Notes under the pieces: model-generated
Told to the model about the DNA's origin: nothing
What the model saw: the letters and a program-made list of their open reading frames with translations, nothing else
Database searches by the model: none
Assembly (NCBI GenBank): GCA_964606085.1
Contig: CAZSFD010000005.1
Span: forward strand, 19,812 to 83,811
Length of the DNA: 64,000 nt
Direction: 5' to 3'
Source of the DNA: an uncultured Anaerolineaceae bacterium
GTDB lineage: Bacteria > Chloroflexota > Anaerolineae > Anaerolineales > UBA4823
Made by a program: the position numbers and the translations under genes
In this document: positions 3,196-45,847 of the stretch, piece by piece
How the letters are laid out: every line of letters begins with the position of its first letter
How positions within the stretch are numbered: the stretch's first letter is position 1

Positions 3196-3204
3196 ATATC
3201 TATG

Positions 3205-3222: not shown

Positions 3223-3290
3223 TGCCTCTCATGCCAGGCACGTTCGCAAGAGCTCGGCCCCTCACCCACATTTCTCTTCAAAAGGGCAGC

Positions 3291-7299: not shown

Positions 7300-7301
7300 T
7301 T

Positions 7302-7349: not shown

Positions 7350-7377
7350 GCCCGTGGTTGCTAAAAAAAAGGTGTCT

Positions 7378-11204: not shown

Positions 11205-11212
11205 GAGGCCGT

Positions 11213-17247: not shown

Positions 17248-17257
17248 CAGGGCGCTT

Positions 17258-23837: not shown

Positions 23838-23848
23838 GGGGGGGCAGG

Positions 23849-25159: not shown

Positions 25160-25166
25160 TGGCTGG

Positions 25167-26024: not shown

Positions 26025-26138
26025 TTCGATCTCCATGGAAACCGCCCGGCGATTGATCGCCGGGCCAGTGAGCAGCGCCAGATTAACCTGGCTTTGTAAC
26101 CTGGGTCTGCCCGATAGCCCCGTTTACGGGGGATTGCT

Positions 26139-27551: not shown

Positions 27552-27574
27552 GGGGTTATGATAGGTGAAAGAGC

Positions 27575-31384: not shown

Positions 31385-31909
31385 TCAGGAGGGCAGGTTG
31401 GTGAGCCAGGTTTTGGTTTAGCGGGGAGATTGGAAGCGCAGGACATTCAGGTGGGTGTGTTCGGGCTGCTGTAACAGGATGGGGGTGTCGCGTTTGCGCC
31501 GCCAATAGGTTTTGAACAGCCACAGGATGATCGAATCTTTGCCAAAGGCGGCGGAGAGCGATTCGCGGTTGCCATTGCAGGCCAGTTCGCCGGTGATGAT
31601 GCGGCTGATCGTGCGCTTCATCAGGCGGTAAAACACCAGTGGCAAGGCATAATCGAGCCAGATCAGTGTGTCGGCGCGCGGCCAGAGCAGGTCGCGCACG
31701 ATGCGGTAGTTGCCGCTGATCGCCCAGGCCGGTTGCGCACTGGCCTGATCGGTCTTGGCGCGAAATTCTGCCAGCGGCACGGGCGTCCAGTTGGGGCCCC
31801 AGTGCAGGTCGTCCAGGTCAATGGCAGGGATGCGCAGGCGTTGGGCAAGCTGCCTGGCCAGGGTGGTTTTGCCGGAACCGGTGCAGCCGGTGACGATGAT
31901 GCGTTGCAT
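31385..31909 (-). CDS. Adenylate kinase-like / FlaR (topology modulation) P-loop protein; in-frame TAA at 31418-31420 truncates the C-terminus
   Basis: GCTGSGKTT Walker A, DLDDLHWGPNW, GNY, ADTLIWLD; frame continues after TAA as TKTWLTNLPS to TGA at 31385. Confidence 0.8.
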
Positions 31910-31960: not shown

Positions 31961-31989
31961 TTGACAAATAATCTTCAACGTGATACCAT
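31961..31989 (+). promoter_or_regulatory. Promoter of DeoR operon
   Basis: TTGACA-17 bp-TACCAT with TGn extension. Confidence 0.7.
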
Positions 31990-32049
31990 CTGGTCGTCAA
32001 AAATCAACAAACATTCAACAAAAATCTTCAATCTGCCATCTGCCCCCTC

Positions 32050-32826
32050 ATGCCCACCTTCGACCGCCGCCAGCAATTGATCAATCTCCTGCAAGCCCAG
32101 GCGGGTTTGCGCGTGCCGGAGATTGCTGAAGCGCTGGGTGTTTCGGAAGGCACGGTGCGCAACGATCTGAATGCCCTCGAAGCCGAGGGCGTTTTGGAGC
32201 GCGTGCATGGCGGGGCGCGGCTGCTGCAAGAGCTTTCTGCGTACACGCCAGCTTTTGCTGCCCGCCTGCAAACCCGACGCGAGGCCAAGCAAGCCATCGC
32301 CCAAAAAGCCGCCGAGTTCGTGCAAGATGGCGACTCGCTGCTGCTCGATGCCAGTTCGACCGTCTACGCTCTGTGCGCCCACCTGCGGCAGCGCAAGGGA
32401 TTGACGATCTTTACCAACGGCATCGAAACCGGGCGCGAACTGGTCAAAAACCCGGCCAATACGGTCATTTTGCTGGGCGGTACGCTGCGTTCAGATGGTA
32501 TGACGATCCATGTGCCGCTCGATGGCGAGATGTTGGCGGGGCTGCACTTCAAGACCGCCTTTGTCTCGTGCAGTGGGTTCAGCCTGGAAGCTGGCATGAC
32601 CGAAGTGGACATTCACGAGGCGCAGTTGAAACGCAAGATGATCACGCGGGCGGGCAAGGTCATTGCCCTGATCGATTCGTCCAAATTTGGGCAGGTAGAC
32701 CTGACCACCTTTGCCAACCTGAACCAGATTGACACTTTATTGACGGATAGCGACCTGGATGCCGATTGCCAGGCGCGGCTGCGCGAGGCAGGCATCCACT
32801 TCCTGGTGTGTGGGGCCGCATTGTGA
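32050..32826 (+). CDS. DeoR/GlpR-family regulator
   Basis: VSEGTVRNDLNALE, RVHGGA, LLLDASST, FTNG, LIDSSKFG. Confidence 0.95.
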   Translation: MPTFDRRQQLINLLQAQAGLRVPEIAEALGVSEGTVRNDLNALEAEGVLERVHGGARLLQELSAYTPAFAARLQTRREAKQAIAQKAAEFVQDGDSLLLDASSTVYALCAHLRQRKGLTIFTNGIETGRELVKNPANTVILLGGTLRSDGMTIHVPLDGEMLAGLHFKTAFVSCSGFSLEAGMTEVDIHEAQLKRKMITRAGKVIALIDSSKFGQVDLTTFANLNQIDTLLTDSDLDADCQARLREAGIHFLVCGAAL

Positions 32827-32846
32827 TTGTCACGGTCGCCTATTCT

Positions 32847-32896
32847 CACCGATTGAAATCGGTGTCTGGCGGTGTTAAACCCGCTTAAGCGGGTTT
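32847..32896. repeat. Two adjacent perfect palindromes
   Basis: CACCGATT-GA-AATCGGTG (32847-32864) and AAACCCGCTTAAGCGGGTTT (32877-32896). Confidence 0.85.
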
Positions 32897-32924
32897 GCTG
32901 CATTTGATGCACACGGAGTTGACC

Positions 32925-34172
32925 ATGAACATCCCTTTTTACCTCGGCGATAATGCCATTGACGAACTGATCAACTATTGTGAAGCGCACGACCGGCGCG
33001 ACTTCTTCCTGATCGCCGACCGCAACACCTATCCCATTCTCGGCCAGGAAGTGGAATTGGCCCTGCAGGCCCGCGGCTGGGACGTGAAAACGGTCATCTA
33101 TCAGCAGCATGAGGTGGTACCCAACGAAGTCTTCATCATGCAAGCGCTGGAGAAGGCAGATTGGGTCGAGCGCACTTTCCTGGCCGTGGGTTCGGGCGTG
33201 ATCACCGACATCACGCGCTTTGTCAGCCACCGCACGCGCCGCCCGTTCATCTCGCTGCCCACCGCCCCCTCGGTAGATGGCTTCACCTCGCCGAGTGCTT
33301 CGTTGGTGCTGGATCGCATCAAGAAGACCGTCATCGCGCAGCCGCCGGAGGCCATCTTCGCCCACCTGCCCACGCTGGTCGCCGCACCCCAGGCCATGAT
33401 CGCCGCCGGGTACGGCGACATCCTCGGCAAGGCCATTGCCCTGGCCGATTGGAAACTCGGTTCGCTGTTGTGGGATGAGCCTTACAGCGCCGAAATCGCC
33501 GCCCGTGTGCGCAACACGCTGGACACCTGCGTGGCTGCCACGGACGAAATTGGCGCAGCCACGCCCGAAGGCATCCGCAAATTGATGGATGCGCTGATCG
33601 ATTCGGGCCTGTGTATGCTCGATTTTGGCAACTCGCGCCCGGCAGCCGGGGCTGAACACTATATGTCCCATTTCCTCGAGATGAAATTCCTGGCCGAAGG
33701 ACGCCCCGCCGTGCTGCACGGGGCCAAAGTGGCGTTGTGTTCGCTCGCTGTGGCCGAACTCTACGACCGCCTGCGCCAACTGAGCCGCGCCGAGGCCGCC
33801 GAGCGCCTGCGCACCATCCCCCTGCCCGACCGCTCCGCCGATATTGAGCGCATCCGCCGCGTCTACGGGCCGATTGCCGACAGCCTGGTGATCGAGCAAG
33901 CGCCCTTCCTCAACCTGACTGCCCACGCCTATGCCACCCTTAAGGGCCGCGTCCTCGACAACTGGGATGACATTCAGGCGCTGGCCGCCGATGTTCCCTG
34001 CCCCGAAGAACTGGCCGATCTGCTCCAGCGTGCTGGCGGTTCCACCAACCCCGCCGATCTCACCCTCCAGCCCGGCGAACTCGAACAGGCCCTGCACCAC
34101 TCGCATCTCTTCCGCAACCGTTTCACCGTGTGCAAGCTGGGCCGCATGTTGGGCCTGGAAGCTGGTTTGTAG
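32925..34172 (+). CDS. sn-glycerol-1-phosphate dehydrogenase-like (AraM/EgsA family)
   Basis: GSGVITDITRF, PTAPSVDGFTS, GYGDILGK, GAEHYMSH, LHGAKV; GGAG RBS before 32925. Confidence 0.88.
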   Translation: MNIPFYLGDNAIDELINYCEAHDRRDFFLIADRNTYPILGQEVELALQARGWDVKTVIYQQHEVVPNEVFIMQALEKADWVERTFLAVGSGVITDITRFVSHRTRRPFISLPTAPSVDGFTSPSASLVLDRIKKTVIAQPPEAIFAHLPTLVAAPQAMIAAGYGDILGKAIALADWKLGSLLWDEPYSAEIAARVRNTLDTCVAATDEIGAATPEGIRKLMDALIDSGLCMLDFGNSRPAAGAEHYMSHFLEMKFLAEGRPAVLHGAKVALCSLAVAELYDRLRQLSRAEAAERLRTIPLPDRSADIERIRRVYGPIADSLVIEQAPFLNLTAHAYATLKGRVLDNWDDIQALAADVPCPEELADLLQRAGGSTNPADLTLQPGELEQALHHSHLFRNRFTVCKLGRMLGLEAGL

Positions 34173-34194
34173 GGCGGAATTAATTTCGCCCTAC
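34169..34194. repeat. GTAG-type REP-like palindrome
   Basis: GTAGGGCG-GAATTAATTT-CGCCCTAC; contains the TAG stop of the upstream gene. Confidence 0.7.
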
Positions 34195-34210
34195 AGAATT
34201 AGGAAAAAAC

Positions 34211-35035
34211 ATGACTGTCGAAGCACCCTATCCCGAATTGGACGAACTCTTAGAACTGGTCGGCGAGGCCGGGCGGCGCATCTCCGATATTGACGCCAGC
34301 GAAGGCTCGGCGGGCAATATCTCCGTTTACATGGAGTGGCCCATCGAACCGCGCCGGCGCTTTCCGCAGGTCGAGGATATTACCCTGCCTGTGGCCGTAC
34401 CCGCTCTGGCTGGCGGCACGCTGATCGTCAGCGGGTCAGGCCGGCGGCTGCGCGAGATTATCCGTGACCCGCTTGCCAACCTGGGGATGCTGGTCGTGGG
34501 TCCGGGCGGCAAAACCGGCAAGCTCTATACCTCGCCACGCCGCCTGTTCGCCCGCCTCACCAGTGAACTCAACTCGCACCTGGCCGTCCACGAAGACCAG
34601 ATCGGCCTGACCGCCACCAACTTCCACGCCATCATCCACGCCCAGCCGCCGCACCTGACCTACCTGAGCAACGTGCCGCGCTATCAGGATCAGGCCTACC
34701 TCAACACCCACTTGCTGCGTTGGCAGCCCGAATTGATTATCAACCTGCCCGAAGGCGTCGGCTATGTGCCTTTCCACATTCCCGGCTCCAACAATCTAAT
34801 GGAAGCCACCCTCGACAAGCTGCGCGCCTGCCGCGTGGTGCTGTGGGCCAAACACGGCGTGATGGCGCGTTCCGACACCTCCGTCAAGCGCGCCGCCGAC
34901 CGCATCGAATACGCCGAAACCGCCGCCCGCTACGAATACATGAACCTCGTCGCCGATGAAGTGGCCGTGGGGCTATCGAGTGAAGAGATTCGAGCGATTT
35001 GTGCGGCGTTTAATGTGAAGCAAACAATCTTTTGA
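34211..35035 (+). CDS. Class II aldolase, rhamnulose-1-phosphate aldolase-like
   Basis: EGSAGNISV, ELNSHL, IIHAQP, WQPEL, VLWAKHG. Confidence 0.8.
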   Translation: MTVEAPYPELDELLELVGEAGRRISDIDASEGSAGNISVYMEWPIEPRRRFPQVEDITLPVAVPALAGGTLIVSGSGRRLREIIRDPLANLGMLVVGPGGKTGKLYTSPRRLFARLTSELNSHLAVHEDQIGLTATNFHAIIHAQPPHLTYLSNVPRYQDQAYLNTHLLRWQPELIINLPEGVGYVPFHIPGSNNLMEATLDKLRACRVVLWAKHGVMARSDTSVKRAADRIEYAETAARYEYMNLVADEVAVGLSSEEIRAICAAFNVKQTIF

Positions 35036-35047
35036 GAAGTGTGCGTC

Positions 35048-35105
35048 AAACGTGAGGCGTGATACGTGAAGACCATCCACGTTTCACGTATCATGCCTCA
35101 CGTTT
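35048..35105. repeat. 23-bp inverted repeat built from CGTGAnn heptamers
   Basis: AAACGTGAGGCGTGATACGTGAA / TTCACGTATCATGCCTCACGTTT, one mismatch (G-U compatible). Confidence 0.85.
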
Positions 35106-35125
35106 CACCAATCACGGAGTTTCCC

Positions 35126-35842
35126 ATGTCCCTTCTCACCCAATACACCCACCAAGTCGAACAATTCGTCGCCGTCTGCCATCGCCTGGCCGATCATCTC
35201 TACGTCACCAGCGCCGGCGGCAACCTGGCCTGGAAGCTGGAACCCAACCTGTTACTGATCACCCCCACGCAGCTCAACAAAGGCTTCGTCACCCCTGATG
35301 ATGTGGTGTTCATTGACCTGAACGGCAAGACCGTCGAGGGCAAACGCCGCCCCACCGGCGAGACGCCCATGTATCTCAAGTTCTTCCACACCCGCCCCGA
35401 CATCGTCTCGGTCATTCACTGCCATGCCCCGCACGTCGGCGCGTTAGCCATCTCGAAGGCCAAAAACTGGCTGATGCGCCCGCTCTACCCCGAAACCACC
35501 ACCGAAGTCGGCCCCGTCCCCGTCGTCCCCTACGCCGAGCCGCTGACCGAAAAGCTGGCCCAGGCCTTCGAGCCATTCTTGCTCAAATACAACAGCTTTA
35601 TCATGGAAAATCATGGCCTGGTCACCCTTACCCGCGGCGGCATCTGGGATACGCTGATGACGGTAGAACTGCTCGAAGGCACGGCCCAATCGCTGCTGCT
35701 CGCCATGTCCGTCGGTGACGTGAAAGAAATCTCGCGCCAGGATGTGGCCGACCTCGACAACGTCATGCGCACGCGCTCGATCCCCTACGTGGGCCTGCCG
35801 GGCGTGAATGCGTCGTTGGAAGCACTGTATTTTGAAGGATAA
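35126..35842 (+). CDS. Class II aldolase/adducin family (FucA-like)
   Basis: SAGGNLAW, ITPT, GETPM, VIHCHAP, MENHG; GGAG RBS before 35126. Confidence 0.88.
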   Translation: MSLLTQYTHQVEQFVAVCHRLADHLYVTSAGGNLAWKLEPNLLLITPTQLNKGFVTPDDVVFIDLNGKTVEGKRRPTGETPMYLKFFHTRPDIVSVIHCHAPHVGALAISKAKNWLMRPLYPETTTEVGPVPVVPYAEPLTEKLAQAFEPFLLKYNSFIMENHGLVTLTRGGIWDTLMTVELLEGTAQSLLLAMSVGDVKEISRQDVADLDNVMRTRSIPYVGLPGVNASLEALYFEG

Positions 35843-35846
35843 TGGT

Positions 35847-35942
35847 GTTCGGCATTCGATAATTCGATAATTCGATATTCGCAATTCGAATACCGAATTA
35901 TCGAATACCGAATACCGAATACCGAATATCCAATACCGAATT
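35847..35942. repeat. Inverted array of 7-8 bp ATTCGnn / CGAATAC units
   Basis: (ATTCGATA)n left arm and (CGAATAC)n right arm. Confidence 0.85.
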
Positions 35943-35946
35943 ACCC

Positions 35947-37245
35947 ATGCTCCCCTTTCCCCCTTTCAACCTCCACTGTCACACCCACTTCTCCTTCAAC
36001 GCCAACGGCTATTCACCCACCGATTTGGTGAAAATGGCAAAGGAAAAGAACTGGTATGCCGTGGGCATCGTGGATTTCGACGTACTCGATGGCGTGGACG
36101 AGTTTCTCTCCGCCTGCGAGGCGTTGGAAATGCGCGGCATGGCTTCCCTCGAAACACGCGTCTACGTCCCCGAATTTGCCACGCGCGAGATCAACTCTCC
36201 TGGTGAGCCGGGCGTGTTCTACTTTATGGGAGTCGGTTTCACCCGAAGTGATCCTGCCCCCGAAGTGGCCGACACCCTCGCCGCCATGCGCCGCCGCGCC
36301 GCCGCCCGCAACCGCCAGATGATCGAGCGCCTCAACGCCCACCTGTCCCCGCTCACCGTAGACTATGACCGCGACGTGCTTTCGCTGACGCCCGCCGGCA
36401 ACGCCACCGAGCGGCACATGCTTAAAGCATATATCCAAAAAGCATATATCCAAAAAGCAGAAGAGCAATTTCAACCACAAAGTATACAAAGGAACACAAA
36501 GGAAAACTTCGTGCCCTTCGAGTCCTTTGTGGTTCGATTGAATGATTTTTGGGCTGAAAAACTGGGCTTGGCGGAAGATCAGATTGCCACGCAGATCGCG
36601 GACTACGCCAAATTCTCCAACACCGTGCGCGGCAAGTTGATGAAACGCGGCGGCGTTGGCTACATCCCGCCCACACCCGAAACCTTCCCCACCGTCGAGG
36701 AAGTCAGCCAGTTTGCCATCGCCTGCGGCGCCATCCCATGCGCCACCTGGCTGGATGGCACTTCTGCCGGCGAGCAAGCCGAAGCCGAATTGCTCGATCT
36801 GCTGATCTCAAAAGGCACGGCAGCGATCAACATCATCCCCGACCGCAACTGGAATATCGCCGACCTTGAACAGCGCAAGCTCAAAGTGCAGAAGCTCTAC
36901 GAGGTGGCGGCCCTGGCGCAACGCCTCGACCTGCCGATCATCGTCGGCACCGAGATGAACGCCCCCGGGCAAAAGCTGGTGGACGATTTCGAAGCCCCCG
37001 AACTGGCCCCCGTGCGCCAGGCCTTCCTCGACGGCGCTGATTTTCTCTACGGCCACACGGTCATGCAGCGCGCCCTCGGCATGGGGTATCAATCGGAGTG
37101 GGCCAAAACAAATCTCCCCACCCGCCGCCAACGCAACGATTTCTACACCCAACTGGGCCGCCGCTTGCAGCCAGGACAGGCTAGTCTCGAAAAATTGCGC
37201 TTTTTACAACCCATATCACCAACAGGAATGTTAGAAAACATCTAA
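35947..37245 (+). CDS. PHP-domain protein (putative phosphoesterase)
   Basis: LHCHTHFS, GIVDFD, GTEMN; carries an AT-rich in-frame insert. Confidence 0.72.
   Translation: MLPFPPFNLHCHTHFSFNANGYSPTDLVKMAKEKNWYAVGIVDFDVLDGVDEFLSACEALEMRGMASLETRVYVPEFATREINSPGEPGVFYFMGVGFTRSDPAPEVADTLAAMRRRAAARNRQMIERLNAHLSPLTVDYDRDVLSLTPAGNATERHMLKAYIQKAYIQKAEEQFQPQSIQRNTKENFVPFESFVVRLNDFWAEKLGLAEDQIATQIADYAKFSNTVRGKLMKRGGVGYIPPTPETFPTVEEVSQFAIACGAIPCATWLDGTSAGEQAEAELLDLLISKGTAAINIIPDRNWNIADLEQRKLKVQKLYEVAALAQRLDLPIIVGTEMNAPGQKLVDDFEAPELAPVRQAFLDGADFLYGHTVMQRALGMGYQSEWAKTNLPTRRQRNDFYTQLGRRLQPGQASLEKLRFLQPISPTGMLENI
36473..36534. mobile_element. 62-bp miniature palindromic element inserted in frame in the PHP gene
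   Basis: Terminal IR AACCACAAAG/CTTTGTGGTT; sister copy at 37244-37306. Confidence 0.7.
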
Positions 37246-37306
37246 CCACAAAGGACACACAGGATCACGAAGACTGTCCTTTGTGTTCCTTCGTGGCCTT
37301 TGTGGT
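37244..37306. mobile_element. Miniature palindromic element (ACCACAAAGG...CCTTTGTGGT) at the PHP stop codon
   Basis: Perfect 10-bp terminal IR, internal ACACAAAG/CTTTGTG-like units; similar length to the in-gene copy. Confidence 0.7.
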
Positions 37307-37323
37307 GAAATTTCGGAGAATCT

Positions 37324-39027
37324 ATGACCGACAAACTCACTTCTTACCGTCAAACCCCAACCCCCGCCGATCCAACCAACCAGCTCTGGCCGCTCTACGG
37401 CGCCGGCCTCGAAAACTTCGGCGTAGATGGCAAGCCCATCGCCGCGCCCCTGCCTTCCTTCGGCCCCGACGAACTGCTCATCCGTCACGATGCCTGCGGG
37501 CTGTGTTTTTCGGATGTCAAAGTGGTCAACCAGGGCCAAAACCACCCGCGCATCTTCCGCGACATGAAAACCGAACCCGTGGTGATGGGTCACGAGGTGG
37601 CCATGACCATCCTCGGCGTGGGCGACAACCTCAAAGACCGCTACCACGTCGGCGAGCGCCTGACCCTCGAAACCGACATCGTCATCCGCGGCAACACCTA
37701 CGCCTACGGCTACTGGTTCCAGGGCGGCCTCTCGCAATACAGCGTCATCGGCCCCGATATTTACGCCGCCGATAACGGTAATAACCTGATCAAAGTCCAA
37801 CCCAAGCAGGATGGCACCATGCCCGGCTACGCCGAAGTGGCTCTCACCGAGCCGTGGGCCTGCGTGGTGGCCGCCTATGCCCTGAAATACCGCGACGGCC
37901 TCAAGCCCGGCGGCGCGTTATGGGTGATCGGCGCGGGTGCAACCGACCGCCCTTACACGATTTCCCGCGGCTTCGACGCAGGGGATGGAACATCCCCCGC
38001 GCACCCCGCCAAACTCTACCTCACCAACGTCCCCGCCGGGTTCGCCGAATGGCTCAAACGCCGCTCCGCCGCCCTGGGCATCGAAGTGACCGAAGTCCCC
38101 GACCCCGCCGCGCCGCCCTTCGACTTCGTAGACGACATCGCCCTCCTCGGCGCAGACCCGGCCCTGATCGAACTCGTCAGCCCGCGCCTCGACCAGTTTG
38201 GCGTCCTGGCCATCCTCGCCGATGCTGCCCTGCCGCGCAAGGTCAACGTGGATGTTGGCCGCATCCACTATCACCGCTGGGTCTATGTTGGCACAACAAC
38301 CAACGACCTGGCCGCCGCCTACCAGCCTGCCATCCGTTCCAACCTCAAGCCGGGCGGCAAGGCCTGGTTCATCGGCGCCGGCGGCCCGATGGGGCGCATG
38401 CACGTTCAGCGCGCCATCGAATTCAACGACCCGCCCGGCACCATCGTTTGCACCGATGTTTCGGATATGCGCCTGAGCGAATTATGCGATTCATTCTCCG
38501 CCCAGGCCGAGGCCAAAGGGATTAACTGGTTGTGCTTGAATCCGATGAATAAAGCCGAATACGCCGCCAAGATGGCCGAATTGGGTCAGTTCGATGACAT
38601 TGTGGTACTCGCCCCGGTCGCTGCCATCATCGCCGACGCCGGAAATTACCTTGCCCCCGACGGCGTGATGAACATCTTTGCGGGTGTGGCGCGCGGCACC
38701 ATGGCCGCCCTCGACCTGAGCGGGGCGTATCTGCATGGCACGCGCGTCATCGGCCACTCGGCTTCGCTGATGTCTTATTTCGAGCTTTCGCCCAACCGCT
38801 CGGTGGCCGCAGTCGGCTCGCTCAGCGCCGCCAAAGATGGCCTGCAAGCCGTTAAAGATGCCAGTTTTGCCGGGAAAGTGGTCATCTACCCCAACATTCG
38901 TGAATTTCCGCTCACCCAACTGGCCGACCTCAAAGACAGCCTCCCCACCGTCCACGCCCTGCTCAACGAGCGCGGCGAATGGACGAACGCGGCGGAGGAT
39001 GAGTTTTTGCGGTTGATGCTGGCGTGA
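37324..39027 (+). CDS. Zn-dependent MDR dehydrogenase, L-sorbose-1-phosphate reductase (SorE)-like, with duplicated nucleotide-binding domain
   Basis: CGLCFSD, GHE, EPWACV, GAGGPMG, GKVVIYP, GEWTNAAE; internal repeat LKPGGxxWxIGAG 148 aa apart. Confidence 0.75.
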   Translation: MTDKLTSYRQTPTPADPTNQLWPLYGAGLENFGVDGKPIAAPLPSFGPDELLIRHDACGLCFSDVKVVNQGQNHPRIFRDMKTEPVVMGHEVAMTILGVGDNLKDRYHVGERLTLETDIVIRGNTYAYGYWFQGGLSQYSVIGPDIYAADNGNNLIKVQPKQDGTMPGYAEVALTEPWACVVAAYALKYRDGLKPGGALWVIGAGATDRPYTISRGFDAGDGTSPAHPAKLYLTNVPAGFAEWLKRRSAALGIEVTEVPDPAAPPFDFVDDIALLGADPALIELVSPRLDQFGVLAILADAALPRKVNVDVGRIHYHRWVYVGTTTNDLAAAYQPAIRSNLKPGGKAWFIGAGGPMGRMHVQRAIEFNDPPGTIVCTDVSDMRLSELCDSFSAQAEAKGINWLCLNPMNKAEYAAKMAELGQFDDIVVLAPVAAIIADAGNYLAPDGVMNIFAGVARGTMAALDLSGAYLHGTRVIGHSASLMSYFELSPNRSVAAVGSLSAAKDGLQAVKDASFAGKVVIYPNIREFPLTQLADLKDSLPTVHALLNERGEWTNAAEDEFLRLMLA

Positions 39028-39031
39028 GGTG

Positions 39032-39116
39032 ATATTCGACAATTCGTGATTCGTTAATCGAAAACGGTCTGCGATGGCAACGAATCACGCATAACGATTA
39101 TCGAATAACGCATAAC
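39032..39116. repeat. Inverted heptamer array (TTCG/CGAA type)
   Basis: CGTGATTCGTT (39045-39055) / AACGAATCACG (39079-39089) plus flanking 7-bp periodic units. Confidence 0.75.
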
Positions 39117-39127
39117 CGTTTCCCGTC

Positions 39128-40000
39128 ATGAACTTCGGCGCCCACATTTTTCTCTGGACTGACCGCTGGACGAATGCTTCGCTTCCGCTGATGGATCGCG
39201 CCCGCGGCCTGGGGCTGGATATGTTGGAGATCGCCAACGGCGATGACGTGGAATTTGACCCGGCGGCCATTCGCCAACAGGCGCAAGCCGTGGGCCTGAC
39301 GCTCACCCTCAGCCCCGGCGGAATCTGGCCGATGGAAGCCGACATCTCGCACCCCGACCCGGCGGCCCGGCAGTTCGGCCTCGACTGGCACCGCCGCTGG
39401 ATTCGCCTGGCCGGTGAGTCGGGCATGGTGGCTTACTGCGGCGCACTCTACGCCCACCCGGGCCGCGTCGCCCGCCGCGCCCCTGACCCCGACGAGCAGC
39501 GCTGGGCTGCCGAGGGGCTGCACGCCCTGGCCGAAATCGGCGCAGCCTGCGGCGTGGAGATCGTCATCGAACCGATGAGCCACTTCCGCACCCACCTGGT
39601 CAACACGCCCCAACAGGCCCTGAACCTCCTCGCCGCCGCCGATCACCCCAACCTGAGCGTGCTGTTCGACACCTATCACGCCGTCACCGAAGTGCGCGAC
39701 TACGCCGCCGCCCTGCGAACACTCGCCCCGCGCCTGTGGGGATTGCACGCCTGCGAAAGCGACCGCGGCGTACCCGGCGGCGATGCTGGGGACAGCGGCG
39801 GGCTTGTTCCCTGGGAGCAGGTATTCTCAGCACTCCACGAAATCAACTTCGACGGAAACGTTCTCTTCGAGTCCTACAACTCCAGCCTCGATAACTGCAA
39901 CTTCGCCTACTCGCGCGGCATGTTCCACCACGTTTGCGACGATGGCGATGAGTTTGTTCGCACGGGCCTGAAATTCCTCCGCAGTCACCCGATCACCTAA
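39128..40000 (+). CDS. Sugar isomerase/epimerase, D-psicose/D-tagatose 3-epimerase family
   Basis: Metal and catalytic set IEPMSHF, FDTYH, HACESDRG, FES. Confidence 0.82.
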   Translation: MNFGAHIFLWTDRWTNASLPLMDRARGLGLDMLEIANGDDVEFDPAAIRQQAQAVGLTLTLSPGGIWPMEADISHPDPAARQFGLDWHRRWIRLAGESGMVAYCGALYAHPGRVARRAPDPDEQRWAAEGLHALAEIGAACGVEIVIEPMSHFRTHLVNTPQQALNLLAAADHPNLSVLFDTYHAVTEVRDYAAALRTLAPRLWGLHACESDRGVPGGDAGDSGGLVPWEQVFSALHEINFDGNVLFESYNSSLDNCNFAYSRGMFHHVCDDGDEFVRTGLKFLRSHPIT

Positions 40001-40021
40001 TCACCTAGTCACCCACTCACC

Positions 40022-41287
40022 TTGTCCCCCTCTCATCCTCTCCCCCCTTTCATCATGACTTCCGAACCTGGCTCCTTCGCCCGGCGCACCATTGTCGAGC
40101 GCAAGCCGCAGATCATCGCCCAGGTTTTGGCTGATTTCGCCTATCCCCCTGAAATTGTCGCCGCGGTTGAAGCCTTTCGAGATGAGATTGCGCATGAAAT
40201 CATCCAACCGCTGCCTAGCACAGGATTAATCCTGTGCCACGATGTGGATGCCTGGAATGCCGAAATCGCCGTCTACGCCGGCAAAACCTGGCTCGAAGTG
40301 CCCTGGTACTTCGCCGAGACGCTGTTCTACCGCAAACTGCTCGAAGCCGTGGGCTACTTCCAGCCTGGTGCGTGGCAGGGCGTAGACCCCTTCCAAAAGG
40401 CCAAAGACCGCCAGATCGCCGCCGACATCCACAAAGCCGCTGCCGAATGGAGCGATCTTTCTGACCTGCCGTCCCACGAAGCCTTCGAGGTGCTGATCCA
40501 TTCCTGCCTGTGGGGCAACCGCACCGATCTGAGCAACCACACGGTCACCCGCCGCGGCGCTACCGGCCTGGCTGCCCGTGAAGATCGCCACCAGATTTTG
40601 ATTGACGACAGCGAAACGCTCTACCGCCTGATCTCCGCCGGCCTGCCGCGCCTCGATTTCATCAACGACAACTGCGGCATAGATTTCCTCACCGACCTGG
40701 CCCTGGCCGATTTTTTGCTGACCAAGGGTTGGGCCGCTGAGATCGTGATGCACCTCAAGCCGCAGCCATTTTTCGTCTCGGATGTGATGATCAAAGACGC
40801 CGAGACGATGCTGGCTGCGCTGGCTGCCTTCGTGCCAGGCGAGTCCGCTTCAGCGGACTTTCGGCCTCAGGCATCGAATTCATTCGACGTAGCCGACCTG
40901 GGCCGCCGTCTGCAACATGCCCACACCGCCGGCCGCCTGCGCTTCACCACGCATCCCTTCTGGCCCACCCCCTTCATGTTCCGCCAAATGCCCGCCGACC
41001 TGCGCAACGAACTCGCCCAGGCCAACCTGGTCATCCTCAAGGGCGATGTCAACTACCGCCGCCTGCTCGATGACCGTCATTGGCCGTTCACGGCCCGCAT
41101 GGAAGAGATCGCCGCCTACCTCCCCGCCCCCTTCGCCGCGCTGCGCACTTTCAAGTGCGAACTCGCCGTCGGACTGCAACCCGGCCAGGCCGAGCAAATC
41201 GCCGTTGCCGACCCCGATTGGCTGCTCAACGGCCAGCGCGGGGTGATCCAATTTGTAACCACGAATAACGAATTTCGATTATCGTGA
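40022..41287 (+). CDS. DUF89/ARMT1-like damage-control sugar-phosphate phosphatase
   Basis: PWYFAET, LWGNRTDLS, DNCG, HLKPQPFFVSD, KGDVNYRRL; start may be TTG 40022 or ATG 40055. Confidence 0.85.
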   Translation: MSPSHPLPPFIMTSEPGSFARRTIVERKPQIIAQVLADFAYPPEIVAAVEAFRDEIAHEIIQPLPSTGLILCHDVDAWNAEIAVYAGKTWLEVPWYFAETLFYRKLLEAVGYFQPGAWQGVDPFQKAKDRQIAADIHKAAAEWSDLSDLPSHEAFEVLIHSCLWGNRTDLSNHTVTRRGATGLAAREDRHQILIDDSETLYRLISAGLPRLDFINDNCGIDFLTDLALADFLLTKGWAAEIVMHLKPQPFFVSDVMIKDAETMLAALAAFVPGESASADFRPQASNSFDVADLGRRLQHAHTAGRLRFTTHPFWPTPFMFRQMPADLRNELAQANLVILKGDVNYRRLLDDRHWPFTARMEEIAAYLPAPFAALRTFKCELAVGLQPGQAEQIAVADPDWLLNGQRGVIQFVTTNNEFRLS

Positions 41288-41305
41288 TTCGAAATTCGTT
41301 ATTCG
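41262..41305. repeat. Perfect 17-bp inverted repeat with stop codon in loop
   Basis: CGAATAACGAATTTCGA / TCGAAATTCGTTATTCG. Confidence 0.9.
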
Positions 41306-41333
41306 GAAAATCCCCTCTCTCGGAGTATTCCTC

Positions 41334-42128
41334 ATGCAACTCGAAAACCGTATCGCCATCGTCACCGGCGGGGCACAAGGATTGGGTCAGGCCATCTGCA
41401 TGCGCCTGGCGCAAGAAGGCTGCCACGTTGTTGTCGCCGATCTGAAAGAAGAACAGGCCATCGCCACCGCCGCGCAGGTGGAGGCCGCCACGGGCCGCCG
41501 TTCATTTGCCGTCAAGGTGGATGTCAGCGACGAAGCCCAGGTGGAAGCGCTGGTGGCCCGCACCGTGCAGGAATTTGGCCGCCTGGATATCCTCGTGGCC
41601 AACGCGGGGATTCTCATCGCCGAGGAGATCACCGAATTTCCCGCCGAAAAGTGGCGCGCCGTGATGAACGTCAACCTGTTTGGCTACTTCCTGTGCGCAA
41701 AGCACGCCGCACGGGTGATGAAGGCGCAAAAAAAGGGCGTGATCATCGAAATCAACTCGAAATCAGGCAAGAAGGGCAGCTTCAAAAACTCGGCCTACGC
41801 TGCCAGCAAATTTGGCGGCATTGGTCTCACGCAATCCATTGCCCTCGACCTGGCCGAACACGGTGTGCGCGTCAACGCCATCTGTCCCGGCAATTTGCTC
41901 GATTCCCCGCTGTGGAACGACGGCCCGAATGCCCTGTTCAAGCAGTACGCCCGCAACCGCGGCATTACCGAAGAAGAAGTGCGCCAGATATACATCAACC
42001 AGGTGCCCATGAAGCGCGGCTGCACCTACGAAGATGTCTGCAACGTCGTCACTTTCATGGCCTCCGACCAATCCAGCTACATGACCGGGCAGGCGATTAA
42101 TGTGACGGGTGGGCAGGAGATGCGGTAA
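41334..42128 (+). CDS. srlD: SDR, sorbitol-6-phosphate dehydrogenase-like
   Basis: TGGAQGLG, INSKSGKKGSFKNSAYAASKFGG, GNLLDSPLW, YMTGQAINVTGGQEM as in SrlD/SorD. Confidence 0.82.
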   Translation: MQLENRIAIVTGGAQGLGQAICMRLAQEGCHVVVADLKEEQAIATAAQVEAATGRRSFAVKVDVSDEAQVEALVARTVQEFGRLDILVANAGILIAEEITEFPAEKWRAVMNVNLFGYFLCAKHAARVMKAQKKGVIIEINSKSGKKGSFKNSAYAASKFGGIGLTQSIALDLAEHGVRVNAICPGNLLDSPLWNDGPNALFKQYARNRGITEEEVRQIYINQVPMKRGCTYEDVCNVVTFMASDQSSYMTGQAINVTGGQEMR

Positions 42129-42129
42129 A

Positions 42130-42185
42130 CGTTATTCGATAATTCGCTATTGGTTTGTGATCGAATAACGAATTATCAAATTTCG
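42130..42185. repeat. Inverted TTCG/CGAA periodic repeat
   Basis: CGTTATTCGAT / ATCGAATAACG, alternative GATAATTCG / CGAATTATC. Confidence 0.75.
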
Positions 42186-42194
42186 CTTTTTCCT

Positions 42195-42998
42195 ATGTTC
42201 CCCTCCCACTACTACTCCGGTTACATCTTCGACCTCGACGGCACGGTTTACCTCGGCGAGGCGCTGCTGCCGCGGGCGGGCGAGGCGATTACGGCTTTGC
42301 GGGCGCGCGGCTGCCGCACGGTGTTCGTCTCGAACAACCCCACGCACACGCGGCAGAGCTATGCGGCCAAGTTGACCCGGCTTGGCCTGCCGACGCCGGT
42401 AAGCGATATTCTCAATTCGTCGGCGGTGATGGTGGATTTTTTGCAGCGCCGCATGCCGGGGGCGCGCTTATTTGCGTTGGGGGAGCAGCCTTTGCTGGAT
42501 GATCTGCTTGCTGGTGGTTTTACGCTGACCGAGAATCCTGCTGAAATCGAAGCCGTCATCGCCAGCTTCGACCGCACGTTGACCTACCGCAAGCTGCAAA
42601 TCGCCTTCGATGCCTTGCGCCTGGAAGCGCATTTCTTCGCCACCAACCCCGATAAATATTGCCCCGTGCCCGCGAGCGAATCCCGGCCCACCGGCGGCGA
42701 ACCCGATTGTGCCGCCATCATTGCCGCCCTCGAAGCCTGCACGGGTAAACCGGTCGAAGCGGTGACAGGCAAGCCCTCGCCAATCATGATCGAAGCCGCC
42801 CTGCATTTGGTGGGCCTGCCAGCCAGCGAGTGCGTGATGGTGGGCGACCGCCTGGAAACGGATGTGAAGATGGGTCTGGATGCCGGGATGGCTGGCGCGC
42901 TCACGTTAACCGGGGCCACGCCAGAAGCAGCGTTGGCCGGATCAGCGATCCGGCCAACCTATCTTTTGCGCAATTTGGGAGATTTGCTTCCCGAATGA
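42195..42998 (+). CDS. HAD-IIA sugar phosphatase (NagD/AraL-like)
   Basis: FDLDGTV, SNN, TNPD, GKP, VGDRLETD. Confidence 0.92.
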   Translation: MFPSHYYSGYIFDLDGTVYLGEALLPRAGEAITALRARGCRTVFVSNNPTHTRQSYAAKLTRLGLPTPVSDILNSSAVMVDFLQRRMPGARLFALGEQPLLDDLLAGGFTLTENPAEIEAVIASFDRTLTYRKLQIAFDALRLEAHFFATNPDKYCPVPASESRPTGGEPDCAAIIAALEACTGKPVEAVTGKPSPIMIEAALHLVGLPASECVMVGDRLETDVKMGLDAGMAGALTLTGATPEAALAGSAIRPTYLLRNLGDLLPE

Positions 42999-43018: not shown

Positions 43019-43972
43019 TCAGGGGGTGATCCATGTGCCGGTTTCGCCTTTGAGCGCCCGGCCCAGGTTGGGCGGATCGGTGATCAACGCTTGTTTGCCG
43101 CCCGCTTCGAGATACCAGATGATGGCCTGAATTTTTGGCCCCATTGAACCTTTGGCGAAGTGACCTTCGGCGAGGTATTGTTTGGCCTCGGCCAGGGTCA
43201 TGCGATCCAACCACTGCTGGTTGGGCTTGCCGAAATGGATCGCGACCTTTTCGACAGCAGTGGCGATCAAAAACAGGTCGGCCTTGAGTTCGCGTGCCAG
43301 CAGGCTGGCGGCGAAATCTTTGTCAATCACCGCCGCAATGCCGCGATATTCGCCATCGCCCACATCCACCACCGGGATGCCGCCGCCCCCCGCGGCGATG
43401 ACGATGATGCGATCTTTCAGGATGGCGCGAATGGTGCTTTCTTCCACGATTTCTTTGGGCATCGGCGAGGCCACCACGCGCCGCCAGCCGCGCCCGGCGT
43501 CTTCGACGACGTGCCAGCCTTGCGTTTCTTGGCGGCGCTGCGCTTCCTCGGCATCCATGAAGCCGCCGATGGGCTTGGTGGGGTGCTGAAAGGCCGGGTC
43601 GTTGGCATCTACCAATGTCTGCGTGATCACGGTGACGACATTTTTGCGGATGTTACGATGATACAACTCGTTTTGCAGCGCCTGTTGCAATTCATAGCCA
43701 ATCGCGCCTTGTGTATCGGCCCCGCACACGTCCAACGGTACCTCGTGCATCCCTTCGACTTTGTGGGCGATTTCTGAACGGCGTAAGATAAAGCCGACCT
43801 GCGGCCCGTTGCCGTGGCCGATGACCATCTCCCAGCCCTGGGCCACCATATCGGCCAGGTACGTAGACGTTGCGCGGATGGCTTCCTGCTGGTCTTCGAC
43901 CGTAACGTGCTTGGGGTCGCGGATGAGCGAATTGCCGCCGATGGCGACGACGGCGAGTTTATGGTGGGTCAT
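43019..43972 (-). CDS. arcC: Carbamate kinase
   Basis: AIGGNSL, HGNGPQVG, KPIG, GWRRVVASP, GGGGIPV, VIDKD, GSMGPK. Confidence 0.95.
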   Translation of the reverse strand: MTHHKLAVVAIGGNSLIRDPKHVTVEDQQEAIRATSTYLADMVAQGWEMVIGHGNGPQVGFILRRSEIAHKVEGMHEVPLDVCGADTQGAIGYELQQALQNELYHRNIRKNVVTVITQTLVDANDPAFQHPTKPIGGFMDAEEAQRRQETQGWHVVEDAGRGWRRVVASPMPKEIVEESTIRAILKDRIIVIAAGGGGIPVVDVGDGEYRGIAAVIDKDFAASLLARELKADLFLIATAVEKVAIHFGKPNQQWLDRMTLAEAKQYLAEGHFAKGSMGPKIQAIIWYLEAGGKQALITDPPNLGRALKGETGTWITP

Positions 43973-43981
43973 GGGGGTCTC

Positions 43982-44962
43982 CTAGCTCATTGTCAACGCC
44001 ATCACCGCTTTCTGCACATGCAGGCGGTTTTCGGCTTCATCGTAGACCACCGAGTTGGGGCCGTCAATGACCTCGTCGGTCACTTCCAGGCCGCGGTCGG
44101 CGGGCAGGCAGTGCATGTAGATGGCGTCGTCTTTGGCGAGCGATAGGCGGCGTTGGTCAGTGATCCACGAACGGTACTTTTCGATCAGCGCCTTGCCTTC
44201 ATCCTTGCCGGTGGTGGTGAGCATGGGCCCCCACGATTTGGGGTAGACCACGTCGGCATCTTGGAAGGCGGCATCCATATCATCGGTCACATCGAAACCG
44301 ACGTGATATTTGCGGGCGTTTTCTTCGGCCTGGGCCATGATTTCGGGCATCAGCTTGAATTCGGGCGGATGCGCCAGCACCACGTCGCAGCCGAAACGGG
44401 TCATTTGCAAGATGAGCGACTGCGGGACGGAGAGCGGTTTGCTGTACGAGGCGGCGTAGGCCCACGAGACGACCACTTTCTTGCGCCGCAAGTCGCGGCC
44501 CTTTTTTTCGATGATCGTCATCAGGTCGGCCAGGCATTGGAAGGGATGATAAACGTCGCATTGCATGTTCAGCACGGGGGCGCGGCTGGCCCTGGCGACT
44601 TCGTTGATGTACTGGTTGCCAAAGGCCCAATCACATTGGCGGATGGCGATGCCGTCGAAATAGCGCCCGAAAATTTCGCCGATCTCTTTGGCGGTGTCGC
44701 CGTGCGAGATTTGGGTTGTCTGGCTGTCTATGAAGGCGGCGTGGCCGCCCAGTTGGGCCATGCCGGCCTCGAACGAGCCGCGCGTGCGTGTAGACGTGAA
44801 GAAGAAGAGCATCGCCAGGGTTTTGTCGCGCAGCAGGGCGTGGGGTTCGCCAAGCGCACGTTTCCGCTTCAAATCCCAGGCTACATCGAGAACGGTTTCG
44901 ACCTCTTCTTTGGAAAAATCGAGATCGCCGATGAAATCGCGGCGGCGAAAGTTGGTTTGCAT
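43982..44962 (-). CDS. ygeW: YgeW-type (knotted) carbamoyltransferase
   Basis: STRT, HPFQ, HCLPAD plus SWAYAASYSKPLSVPQS segment typical of YgeW rather than ArgF. Confidence 0.7.
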   Translation of the reverse strand: MQTNFRRRDFIGDLDFSKEEVETVLDVAWDLKRKRALGEPHALLRDKTLAMLFFFTSTRTRGSFEAGMAQLGGHAAFIDSQTTQISHGDTAKEIGEIFGRYFDGIAIRQCDWAFGNQYINEVARASRAPVLNMQCDVYHPFQCLADLMTIIEKKGRDLRRKKVVVSWAYAASYSKPLSVPQSLILQMTRFGCDVVLAHPPEFKLMPEIMAQAEENARKYHVGFDVTDDMDAAFQDADVVYPKSWGPMLTTTGKDEGKALIEKYRSWITDQRRLSLAKDDAIYMHCLPADRGLEVTDEVIDGPNSVVYDEAENRLHVQKAVMALTMS

Positions 44963-45047
44963 AAAGTAGTCTCCTGATCGGTTCGTAGCAGTGGATGAAA
45001 ATTATTGGTCGCCCTTGTTGCGCAAAGAGTGGGCGGGTTAGGCTCTC

Positions 45048-45833
45048 TCACCATCCTCGTAGCCAATACACCACCATCCCAATATACTCTTTCAGCACTT
45101 TCGAGGTGGCGGCCAGGTTATCGGCGGAGGGCAGCAGGCGGATCAGCAGGCCGGGGCCCGGTTCGGTCAGGGCCGCCCAATCGGCCTGGGTGATCGAATA
45201 ATCGGTGGGGGCGGGGATGACTTCGAGGCCCTGGTTCTCGAAGAGCGGCAGCGAGCGCGGCATGTGGAAGGCCGACGTGACCAGGATGATACGGCTGATC
45301 CCTTTTTCGCGCAAGATTTTGGCGCATTCGGCGGCGTTTTCAGCGGTGTTGCGCGAGGTTTCTTCCAGCCAGATGGCATTCGGCGGCACGCCCATCAGAT
45401 CGAGCAGGAAGGCCATATCGTCGGCAGCCGATTTGCCCGTTTCGAGCCACGCGATGGCCCCGCCGCTGACGAGGATAGCCGGCGCGGCGCGCTGCTGATA
45501 GAGCCAGGCGGCATAAGCCACCCGGTCGCCGGCGCCGTTCATCTCGACGATGGGGCGCGGGTACAAGGCCGGGGCTGTGCCGCCGCCGAGCAGCACAATC
45601 ACCTCGGCCTGGGGGATTTCGGCGGGCGGGAAATACTGCCATTCCACCGAACGCGTCAGCGCGGCCGAGACGAGTTCATTGCTCGCCAGCAGCAGCACAA
45701 CCAGCGTGGCAATCAGCACGGCGCGCTGCGCCCGTGGCTTGCGCCACAGCAGTATGGCCGCTCCTATTGCCAGCAGCGCCAGGCCGAGGGGGTAAACAAA
45801 TGGGGGCAGAAATTTGGAGAGAAAGATGAACAT
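45048..45833 (-). CDS. YdcF/ElyC (DUF218) membrane-anchored protein
   Basis: LLGGG, SGG, LEETSRNTAENA, VTSAFHMPRS. Confidence 0.88.
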   Translation of the reverse strand: MFIFLSKFLPPFVYPLGLALLAIGAAILLWRKPRAQRAVLIATLVVLLLASNELVSAALTRSVEWQYFPPAEIPQAEVIVLLGGGTAPALYPRPIVEMNGAGDRVAYAAWLYQQRAAPAILVSGGAIAWLETGKSAADDMAFLLDLMGVPPNAIWLEETSRNTAENAAECAKILREKGISRIILVTSAFHMPRSLPLFENQGLEVIPAPTDYSITQADWAALTEPGPGLLIRLLPSADNLAATSKVLKEYIGMVVYWLRGW

Positions 45834-45847
45834 GGCGGCCTGAAATT

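Follow-up and report, generated by a model that had tools for sequence, protein, structure and literature searches.

What is broken down by a repressor-controlled carbohydrate operon that has neither a sugar kinase nor a transporter? The question is raised by positions 32050-42998 of a 64,000-nt stretch of contig CAZSFD010000005.1 (the window), which belongs to an uncultured Anaerolineaceae bacterium. In this interval, ten intact and co-directional open reading frames (ORFs) of the plus strand are separated by intergenic gaps of 21-104 nt. The original prediction, made from the sequence alone, read them as a pathway for L-sorbose or hexitol phosphates that works without a phosphotransferase system (PTS). 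The absence of a PTS was confirmed: Pfam and NCBIfam models showed no PTS, sugar kinase or transporter gene in the operon, and no PTS gene in its flanks. The pathway as a whole was borne out in part. The two-step conversion deduced from a SorE-like and a SrlD-like enzyme holds, whereas the epimerase step and the sorbose/hexitol context are not supported.

The answer offered here is that the operon is a DeoR-repressed local version of a module which is widespread in Anaerolineae and lies in loci for 6-deoxy-L-hexoses (L-rhamnose and sometimes L-fucose), a placement that is well supported. The recurrence of the core genes beside rhamnose or fucose genes, and beside genes for E1 and E2 components of the 2-oxo-acid dehydrogenase type, suggests an undescribed route of 6-deoxy-sugar breakdown. 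Gene content, conservation, genomic association and family membership were observed directly, and from them we infer every substrate and reaction named below. The enzyme families are all known, and a repressor-controlled carbohydrate operon is an ordinary kind of object. Relative to the literature searched, the novelty consists in the four-gene module with its long dehydrogenase and divergent PHP-like protein, and in the way these are coupled to rhamnose/fucose genes and to E1E2.

The module in related loci

Seventeen loci were taken from species-representative genomes, 80 from metagenomes and several from exact-protein look-ups, and their genes were called and clustered. The set comprises 98 non-redundant Anaerolineae loci. 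Gene-content counts were made on the 32 of them which are well flanked, that is, extend for 5 kb or more to either side of the gene for the medium-chain dehydrogenase/reductase (MDR). Families were assigned with Pfam and NCBIfam models and with sequence searches of the PDB.

Across the 98 loci a near-invariant module is found, consisting of an aldolase-fold protein, a PHP-like protein, a 567-aa MDR of the SorE/YggP type and a short-chain dehydrogenase/reductase (SDR) of the SrlD type, in this order. The PHP-like gene and the SDR gene are each present in 31 of the 32 well-flanked loci and an aldolase-fold gene of any kind in 29, the PHP-like gene being the most constant partner of the MDR. The operon is more than a chance neighbourhood. 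Co-occurrence of the genes elsewhere, to which the original prediction had tied its case, is indeed wide for the core genes. The remaining genes are a DeoR regulator (21/32), a sn-glycerol-1-phosphate dehydrogenase-like (G1PDH-like) protein (20/32), a fused E1 (18/32), at least one rhamnose gene (16/32), MIPS (10/32), DUF89 or HAD (10/32; DUF89 itself 6/32) and a ketose-3-epimerase-like protein (3 loci). The G1PDH-like gene is common in close relatives and missing in loci that are more remote.

Additions confined to particular lineages are the genes for the epimerase, DUF89 and HAD. Among the non-redundant loci the epimerase-like gene occurs only in the window, L003 and L018, and the arrangement with epimerase and DUF89 between MDR and SDR is common only to the window, L003/L021 and L018; in most related loci the SDR directly follows the MDR. 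The C3-epimer step that had been proposed would need this enzyme, which only three non-redundant loci possess, and the DUF89 and HAD genes are accessory as well. No locus has both RhaB and a XylB-like FGGY kinase, none has both the FGGY kinase and E1, and a single one has both the G1PDH-like gene and c8, a protein encoded in distant loci which resembles the N-terminal part of RhaE and keeps canonical aldolase motifs. Such mutual exclusion suggests interchangeable parts. The accessory genes of the loci all encode sugar-phosphate enzymes (M1PDH-like, MIPS, PfkB, FGGY, DUF89, HAD and histidine phosphatase). The long MDR has >4,000 homologues in public metagenomes and is found, as is the PHP-like protein, in freshwater, peat, sediment and sludge.

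In loci with an MDR 55-67% identical to that of the window, the module is located inside L-rhamnose arrays. These contain RhaA (684 bits, cut-off 572), a RhaS-type binding protein (380 bits, cut-off 342) with ABC components, RhaB (501 bits, just under the cut-off of 528), RhaM (71.6 bits, under the cut-off of 99.6), a GH106 rhamnosidase and RhaD-like or RhaE-like aldolases. For instance, the co-directional array of L039 reads RhaB-AldA-RhaA-c8-PHPl-MDR-SDR-E1-E2 (PHPl, PHP-like protein), and the gene order of L093 is ABC-RhaS-RhaA-c26-c8-ADH-PHPl-MDR-SDR-SorC-M1PDH-like-E1-E2-E3. In one locus (L108) the L-fucose isomerase FucI adjoins the module, and in L018 an operon of the window type is divergent from rhaB, with an operator region in common. 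In the relatives, utilisation of L-rhamnose or L-fucose together with E1E2(E3) thus takes the place of the L-sorbose/hexitol context that had been assumed.

Genes for a fused E1/E2(/E3) complex usually come after the module in the relatives. The linkage to E1 was also found from the opposite side, as three out of three fused-E1 homologues, chosen solely for long contigs, directly follow the module. This E1 joins the alpha and beta subunits in one 703-aa protein, and models of pyruvate dehydrogenase (PDH) and branched-chain E1 match it below their cut-offs.

Two further clusters were seen in these loci. Positions 1-2469 of L018, divergent from its window-type operon, hold a LarA-type (nickel-pincer) lactate racemase homologue and the rhamnulokinase. 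Another sugar-phosphate cluster is located downstream of the module in L005 (14490-20554), and parts of it are also seen in L011, L017 and L030. Its products are a ketose-1,6-bisphosphate aldolase (417 vs 406 bits), an isomerase similar to SftI (sulfoquinovose isomerase), a kinase of the 1-PFK type, a mannitol-dehydrogenase-like protein and a SorE-like paralogue of the MDR that is short (422 aa).

Enzymes of the operon

The zinc-dependent MDR (37324-39027, 567 aa) can be aligned over its full length with SorE of Klebsiella and YggP of E. coli. It shares with them the zinc ligands C58, H90/E91 and E176, the NAD site GAGGPMG (G351-G357) and the C-terminal tail GK.V.YP...PLT...W..AE..L; identity to SorE is ~26%. 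Some annotation pipelines name its homologues L-sorbose-1-phosphate reductase. Judged by this alignment, the label SorE-like is correct at the level of the subfamily. The norm of SorE and YggP, a single-Rossmann architecture of ~410-425 aa, is exceeded by a ~150-aa insertion between EPWAC and GAGGPMG, which is a duplicated and degenerate Rossmann half. In the AlphaFold model the catalytic domain stays below pLDDT 50.

The MDR of the window has a private in-frame deletion of 30 nt at ~38776, which removes the ten residues LVLSKTNSGE of a nearly invariant segment, and the Asp next to it is changed to Tyr. The segment is kept in 87 of 88 MDR homologues, including two that are ~90% identical (P0002 and P0003). 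The Logan contigs of the source run, which are independent, end at 38775 and begin again at 38940; a strain variant and an assembly join are both conceivable as the origin of the deletion.

A cultured organism, Deinococcus sp. AJ005, encodes a long MDR of 36% identity that has this insertion too (plasmid p380k, 314515-319269; L103). Divergently from its operon, SDR-MDR-FGGY kinase-GntR, run the genes for mannose-6-phosphate isomerase, for an epimerase of the AGE family, for a ROK protein and for an ABC sugar system. This cluster could serve as a tractable experimental model.

The SDR (41334-42128) is assigned to the sorbitol-6-phosphate 2-dehydrogenase family by the SrlD model NF009050 (378 bits, cut-off 307; the next family reaches 237 bits) and matches Erwinia SrlD (5o3z) with E 1.5e-75. 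Its translation shows the cofactor and catalytic motifs TGGAQGLG, NAG, Ser and YxxxK. It is only 31% identical to Klebsiella SorD, and the RhaEW model gives 187 bits, below the generic FabG score. In the enteric system, which contains the only characterised relatives of the MDR/SDR pair, SorE reduces L-sorbose-1-phosphate next to the phosphate to glucitol-6-phosphate, and oxidation at the far end then leads to fructose-6-phosphate. The adjacency of the MDR and SDR genes fits a two-step conversion of this kind, from a ketose-1-phosphate through an alditol phosphate to a ketose-6-phosphate. On this point the original prediction is sound, the MDR aligning with SorE/YggP over its whole length, the SDR exceeding the SrlD cut-off and the two being neighbours in 31/32 loci.

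Two aldolase-fold genes follow one another. AldA (34211-35035) resembles RhaD, with 145.6 bits against NF002963, whose cut-off of 170 is not reached, and with a match of 3e-19 to E. coli RhaD. It keeps Glu117, His141 and His212 of the latter, while the zinc ligand His143 is replaced by Gln; the resulting H-A-Q, lacking the second zinc ligand, is found in 32/32 members of the family. From these residues, AldA may be something other than a standard aldolase. The second gene product, AldB (35066-35842, the real start being probably the ATG at 35126), is FucA/OtnC/DrdA-like; it reaches 114.6 bits with PF00596 (cut-off 22.2) and keeps the canonical Glu, HxH and His, and no NCBIfam model of equivalog level was reached.

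The PHP-like protein (35947-37245, 432 aa) matches PF02811 with its N-terminus only. It has >4,800 homologues, and every named one among the best 120 is called hypothetical or PHP-domain protein. Its AlphaFold2 model (pLDDT 73.6) finds the cog0613 PHP phosphoesterases 2yb1, 3e0f and 9etk as best Foldseek matches, with E ~6e-8. In the motif comparison, HxH and Glu are kept, N18 and F44, both invariant, occupy the positions where Asp and His would be expected for the third metal site, and G-H stands in place of the terminal DxH; the protein thus departs from the nine-ligand trinuclear site of PHP phosphoesterases. In view of these substitutions, its activity may differ from that of a conventional phosphatase. 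One possibility is a phosphoesterase; another, suggested by the degenerate third metal site, is an epimerase or isomerase.

The AraM/G1PDH-like protein of the Fe-ADH_2 type (32895-34172, probably starting at the ATG at 32925) is recognised by PF13685 (5.1e-32) and, over residues 15-295, by the 414-aa G1PDH structure 9h4x (2.5e-67). With NF002022 it scores 186.7 bits, the cut-off being 413, and the araL/araM analogy which had been drawn is valid at the family level only.

Three accessory enzymes complete the operon. The ketose-3-epimerase-like protein (39128-40000), a TIM barrel of the xylose-isomerase fold, matches PF01261 (6e-35), DPEase/DTEase structures (5e-26) and the D-psicose 3-epimerase model (118.8 bits, below the cut-off of 300), and Glu-Asp-His-Glu metal-site motifs are seen by eye in its translation. 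The ARMT1/DUF89 protein (40022-41287), a putative metal-dependent sugar-phosphate phosphatase of the eukaryote-type subfamily, has 206.4 bits with PF01937 (cut-off 25; 7.8e-61) and full-length matches of ~1e-42 to structures from S. pombe, human ARMT1 and yeast YMR027W. The HAD-IIA phosphatase (NagD/AraL/PGP-type, 42150-42998) reaches 125.6 bits with TIGR01460 (cut-off 100.15) and shows the motifs DxDGT, GKP and GDxxxTD. Compared with this inventory, the eight genes listed in the original prediction are all real, and the two which it missed are DUF89 and the PHP-like protein, the most conserved partner of the MDR.

Several assignments of the operon to other pathways were dropped. The Thermotoga-type inositol pathway (IolM/IolO) gives weak partial matches (51 and 73 bits) under the psicose-epimerase and SorE-type signals; for the tetronate (Otn) pathway, AldB and the epimerase match OtnC and OtnI weakly and there is no DUF1537 kinase; and archaeal-type lipid synthesis from glycerol-1-phosphate has no linked prenyltransferase.

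Candidate routes through the module

The reading preferred here, to which a probability of roughly 0.35 is given, is that the MDR and the SDR swap the functional ends of a 6-deoxy-ketose-1-phosphate and that E1E2 then cleaves the product. RhaA and a rhamnulokinase encoded elsewhere would provide the ketose-1-phosphate, that is, L-rhamnulose-1-phosphate or a stereoisomer. The class-II-aldolase-fold proteins would probably set the stereochemistry by cleaving and re-forming the bond between dihydroxyacetone phosphate (DHAP) and L-lactaldehyde, and in this lineage the epimerase may contribute. The MDR would reduce the keto group next to the phosphate to a 6-deoxy-alditol-1-phosphate (which is equally a 1-deoxy-alditol-6-phosphate), and the SDR would re-oxidise the carbon next to the methyl end to a 1-deoxy-ketose-6-phosphate, an alpha-hydroxy methyl ketone. 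The thiamine/lipoamide complex of fused E1, E2 and, where present, E3, which the relatives encode and which presumably has a locus elsewhere in this genome, would cleave this methyl ketone to acetyl-CoA and a tetrose-4-phosphate. A precedent for the conversion of an alpha-hydroxy methyl ketone to acetyl-CoA and an aldehyde is acetoin dehydrogenase.

The end swap would fit both the homology of the MDR/SDR pair and the linkage to E1E2. If SorE/SrlD chemistry acts on the products of rhamnulokinase or fuculokinase, a 1-deoxy-ketose-6-phosphate results, and its obvious fate would be thiamine-dependent C2-C3 cleavage. Moreover, rhamnulose-1-phosphate and fuculose-1-phosphate differ only at C4, the future aldehyde carbon, so both would converge on the same products. 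For erythrose-4-phosphate to be formed, C3 would have to be inverted, which could be supplied by the aldolase-fold proteins, by the PHP-like protein or, in this lineage, by the epimerase. As for the other enzymes, the G1PDH-like protein would interconvert DHAP and glycerol-1-phosphate, or act on a longer 2-keto-1-phosphate, and DUF89 and HAD-IIA would dephosphorylate ketose phosphates that are in surplus or have left the pathway. An extended form, in which the end swap and E1/E2/E3 let Anaerolineae recover all six carbons without lactaldehyde or propanediol and the PHP-fold protein is a new sugar-phosphate epimerase or isomerase, is an unlikely one.

Several points weigh against the end swap. 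Without C3 inversion the product would be D-threose-4-phosphate or L-erythrose-4-phosphate, and the epimerase is rare. The scheme has no necessary role for the PHP-like protein or for the G1PDH-like protein, nor does it need a true aldol cleavage, although it is very rare for a locus to be without aldolase-fold genes. The so-called Type II loci have MIPS and a XylB-like kinase in place of E1E2. The fused E1, with a median conservation of 81%, is named 2-oxo-acid dehydrogenase E1 by the pipelines and may simply use pyruvate. In the window itself, tblastn over the 64 kb did not find rhaA, rhaB, the XylB-like kinase, MIPS or E1/E2, and the MDR bears the unusual 10-aa deletion. Finally, no description of such a route or module was found in the literature searched. 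The conservation of E1 had also been considered as a sign of a housekeeping PDH and is uninformative in this regard, since the SDR is equally conserved (79% vs 81% in the same locus pairs).

The strongest rival, possible though rather doubtful, is the classical phosphorylated route with an extended lower branch. An aldolase-fold enzyme would split the ketose-1-phosphate to DHAP and L-lactaldehyde, the latter would be oxidised via lactate or methylglyoxal to pyruvate by the MDR and by the SDR acting like RhaW, and E1E2E3 would be a PDH that forms acetyl-CoA. L-Lactaldehyde is common to the rhamnose and fucose routes, and RhaA and FucI both occur beside the module. Two oxidations and an oxidative decarboxylation match two dehydrogenases and E1E2E3, the E1 does match PDH E1 models, a LarA-like lactate racemase adjoins rhaB in L018, and no FucO- or AldA-type lactaldehyde enzyme recurs in the loci. 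A survey of rhamnose regulons points in the same direction, as it shows the greatest differences among lineages in the lactaldehyde steps, identifies RhaW as an SDR and includes regulons that reach pyruvate (PMC3870299). The families of the two dehydrogenases speak against this rival: the SDR is specifically SrlD-like (378 bits vs 187 for the RhaEW model) and the MDR belongs to the phosphosugar SorE/YggP subfamily. To our knowledge, there is no precedent for NAD-linked lactate oxidation by an MDR, and the PHP-like, G1PDH-like, DUF89, HAD, MIPS and M1PDH-like proteins and the kinases would be left without a role. The sorbose/hexitol pathway of the original prediction, with fructose-6-phosphate, glucitol-6-phosphate, L-sorbose-1-phosphate, its C3 epimer and finally DHAP plus a triose, in either direction, involves no deoxy sugars and is considered quite unlikely. 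It draws on the SorE-like and SrlD-like assignments, on the presence of the epimerase and two aldolase-fold genes in a window that has no rhamnose genes, and on the distant Deinococcus cluster, where SDR, long MDR and FGGY kinase stand in a mannose/hexose context. However, the epimerase is confined to three non-redundant loci and its known relatives use unphosphorylated ketoses, the SDR is distant from SorD (31%), the relatives are embedded in rhamnose loci, and both the PHP-like protein and the E1E2 linkage are ignored. We know of no PF00596 aldolase that makes or cleaves the 3S,4R configuration of L-sorbose-1-phosphate.

Two further explanations look beyond a ketose pathway. Polyol phosphates might be formed and dephosphorylated as an electron sink, as osmolyte supply or for damage control, switched on during deoxy-sugar use, which we regard as improbable. 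DHAP would go via glycerol-1-phosphate to glycerol and fructose-6-phosphate via sorbitol-6-phosphate to sorbitol, with the PHP-like, DUF89 and HAD proteins as phosphatases, and mannitol-1-phosphate and inositol-3-phosphate would be treated likewise in the relatives. The loci are unusually rich in enzymes that form polyol phosphates (G1PDH-like, SrlD-like, M1PDH-like, MIPS) and have four unrelated phosphatase families (PHP-like, DUF89, HAD-IIA, histidine phosphatase); the core needs no kinase, and the relatives of DUF89 are damage-control phosphatases. DeoR repression and the position inside catabolic operons are nevertheless unlike biosynthesis, the aldolase-fold genes, the SorE-type MDR and E1E2 would be unexplained, and the PHP-like protein is without the third-metal-site ligands typical of PHP phosphatases. 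Salvage of polyol phosphates from the envelope is very improbable. Here the source would be rhamnose-rich wall polysaccharides or teichoic-acid-like polymers with sn-glycerol-1-phosphate or hexitol phosphate; the PHP-like protein would be a phosphodiesterase, and the G1PDH-like protein, the MDR and the SDR would oxidise the polyol phosphates to DHAP or ketose phosphates. Streptococcal rhamnose polysaccharides do carry a glycerol-1-phosphate decoration. Such salvage would account for a catabolic G1PDH, for the kinase-free core and for the association with rhamnose, and both the window and L021 have a LytR-CpsA-Psr (LCP) gene 2 kb upstream. This LCP synteny is nonetheless limited to the closest relative, no signal peptide is seen by eye in the PHP-like translation, no organophosphate transporter is linked to the module and the more distant loci have no G1PDH-like gene. 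Like polyol formation, envelope salvage explains some accessory genes and not the core.

With a function for the module, thousands of genes could be annotated in Anaerolineae, which are abundant and for the most part uncultured, and the module would explain how these bacteria use rhamnose- and fucose-rich polysaccharides of plants, algae and bacteria. If the end swap followed by thiamine-dependent cleavage is true, it would be a new logic of deoxy-sugar catabolism and would add a new substrate class to complexes of the 2-oxo-acid-dehydrogenase type. The genes are also a source of enzymes for the synthesis of rare-sugar and deoxy-sugar phosphates.

Regulation, surroundings and comparison with known systems

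The regulator gene (32050-32826) encodes a DeoR protein with an HTH_DeoR domain (1.1e-17) and a DeoRC sensor domain (3.8e-47). It reached no NCBIfam equivalog cut-off, the best being AgaR with 182 vs 260 bits. Upstream of it on the same strand is a sigma-70-like promoter (TTGACA-17-TACCAT, 31961-31989, with a TG extension), overlapped by tandem repeats TTCAAC/ATCAAC/TTCAAT at 31974, 32004, 32014 and 32027. The region 31961-32035 is thus a candidate DeoR operator. Pairs of TTC[AG]ACAA recur in 12 of the related loci; every one of them stands at the 5′ end of its cluster, and nine directly precede deoR. At the 3′ end of the operon there are two terminator-like hairpins (42932-42996, plus strand). 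In L014, the gene immediately upstream of RhaA-MDR-SDR (7017-8726) encodes a protein of 569 aa in which a DeoR regulator is fused to a periplasmic-binding-protein sensor domain of the LacI type.

The spacer of 100 nt that separates the MDR gene from the epimerase gene (39028-39127) is A+T-rich and rich in repeats. It has an inverted repeat of 14 nt with 93% complementarity, a pair of direct repeats of 15 nt spaced by 21 nt and a number of TCGAA-type motifs. An internal operator or promoter is conceivable here, as is a scar left by insertion of the epimerase and DUF89 genes; in L003 and L018, the other loci of the same operon type, it is shorter.

The source sample is a freshwater metagenome, a search of sequencing runs gave DNA metagenomes and none of RNA, and the closest relatives are metagenome-assembled genomes of Chloroflexota/Anaerolineae. 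The flanking genes are unrelated to the operon. Upstream are a P-loop FlaR-like protein, an S41 peptidase and the LCP protein. The divergent ORF at 31418-31909 (163 aa) was considered as the missing sugar kinase and rejected, being a FlaR/adenylate-kinase-like P-loop protein that overlaps the peptidase gene. Downstream, the minus strand (43019-46978) encodes carbamate kinase, ornithine/aspartate carbamoyltransferase, a DUF218 protein and a DAHP synthase that has a ferredoxin-like domain. These genes are transcribed towards the 3′ end of the operon, and the relatives gave no sign of a functional link. Farther upstream, a large glycan-utilisation array (3186-22602, plus strand) contains a GH94 phosphorylase, two solute-binding proteins (one of 986 aa), ABC permeases, an NHL/Yip1 protein, DUF5696, a glucoamylase-like protein and a GH35/GH42-like beta-galactosidase. 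It is followed on the minus strand (22644-28828) by genes in the order MFS transporter, mannitol-dehydrogenase-family protein (436 aa), PIG-L deacetylase, a 479-aa protein for which no family match was obtained, and another MFS transporter. In L004, L005, L024 and L062 the module is accompanied by a homologue of the mannitol-dehydrogenase-like gene.

Parts of the operon resemble several known systems. The DUF89 protein is similar over its full length to the damage-control phosphatases YMR027W and human ARMT1, whose family includes metal-dependent sugar-phosphate phosphatases; unlike them, it is bacterial, accessory and located inside a catabolic operon. B. subtilis AraM is a Ni-dependent sn-glycerol-1-phosphate dehydrogenase and AraL a HAD-IIA sugar phosphatase, so that the same two families meet in one sugar operon in both cases. 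In the present one, however, the G1PDH-like protein is below the model cut-off, the HAD gene is found in about one quarter of the related loci and there are no arabinose genes. In respect of the acetoin and pyruvate dehydrogenase complexes (TPP-dependent E1, lipoyl E2 and E3), the relatives of the window have E1, E2 and often E3 in one co-directional array, the difference being that their E1 is fused and that the window does not encode the complex.

With the phosphorylated L-rhamnose pathway (PMC3870299), the relatives have RhaA, RhaB, RhaM, RhaS-type ABC components and an aldolase similar to the N-terminal part of RhaE in common. The DeoR-type RhaR of Chloroflexus has a demonstrated tandem TCGAAA operator and L-rhamnulose as effector (Rodionova et al. 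2013, PMC3870299), and in the window, too, tandem repeats overlap the promoter of an operon with a DeoR-family repressor. In contrast to the Chloroflexus regulon (RhaA, RhaB, RhaEW, RhaFGHJ; PMC3870299), there is no RhaEW fusion here. The PHP-like protein, the long MDR, the SrlD-type SDR and E1E2 belong to no described rhamnose regulon, and the window is without isomerase, kinase and transporter.

The closest parallel for the dehydrogenase pair is enteric SorE with SorD/SrlD, with which it shares the whole MDR scaffold, an SrlD-type SDR and the adjacency of the two genes. SorE and YggP, the latter itself uncharacterised in E. coli, are without the ~150-aa insertion, and the Klebsiella sor operon has a sorbose PTS EII and a SorC regulator, neither of which is present in the operon of the window. 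Its SDR is SrlD-like and not SorD-like, and the module stands in a context of rhamnose/fucose genes and E1E2, unlike the enteric sorbose module.

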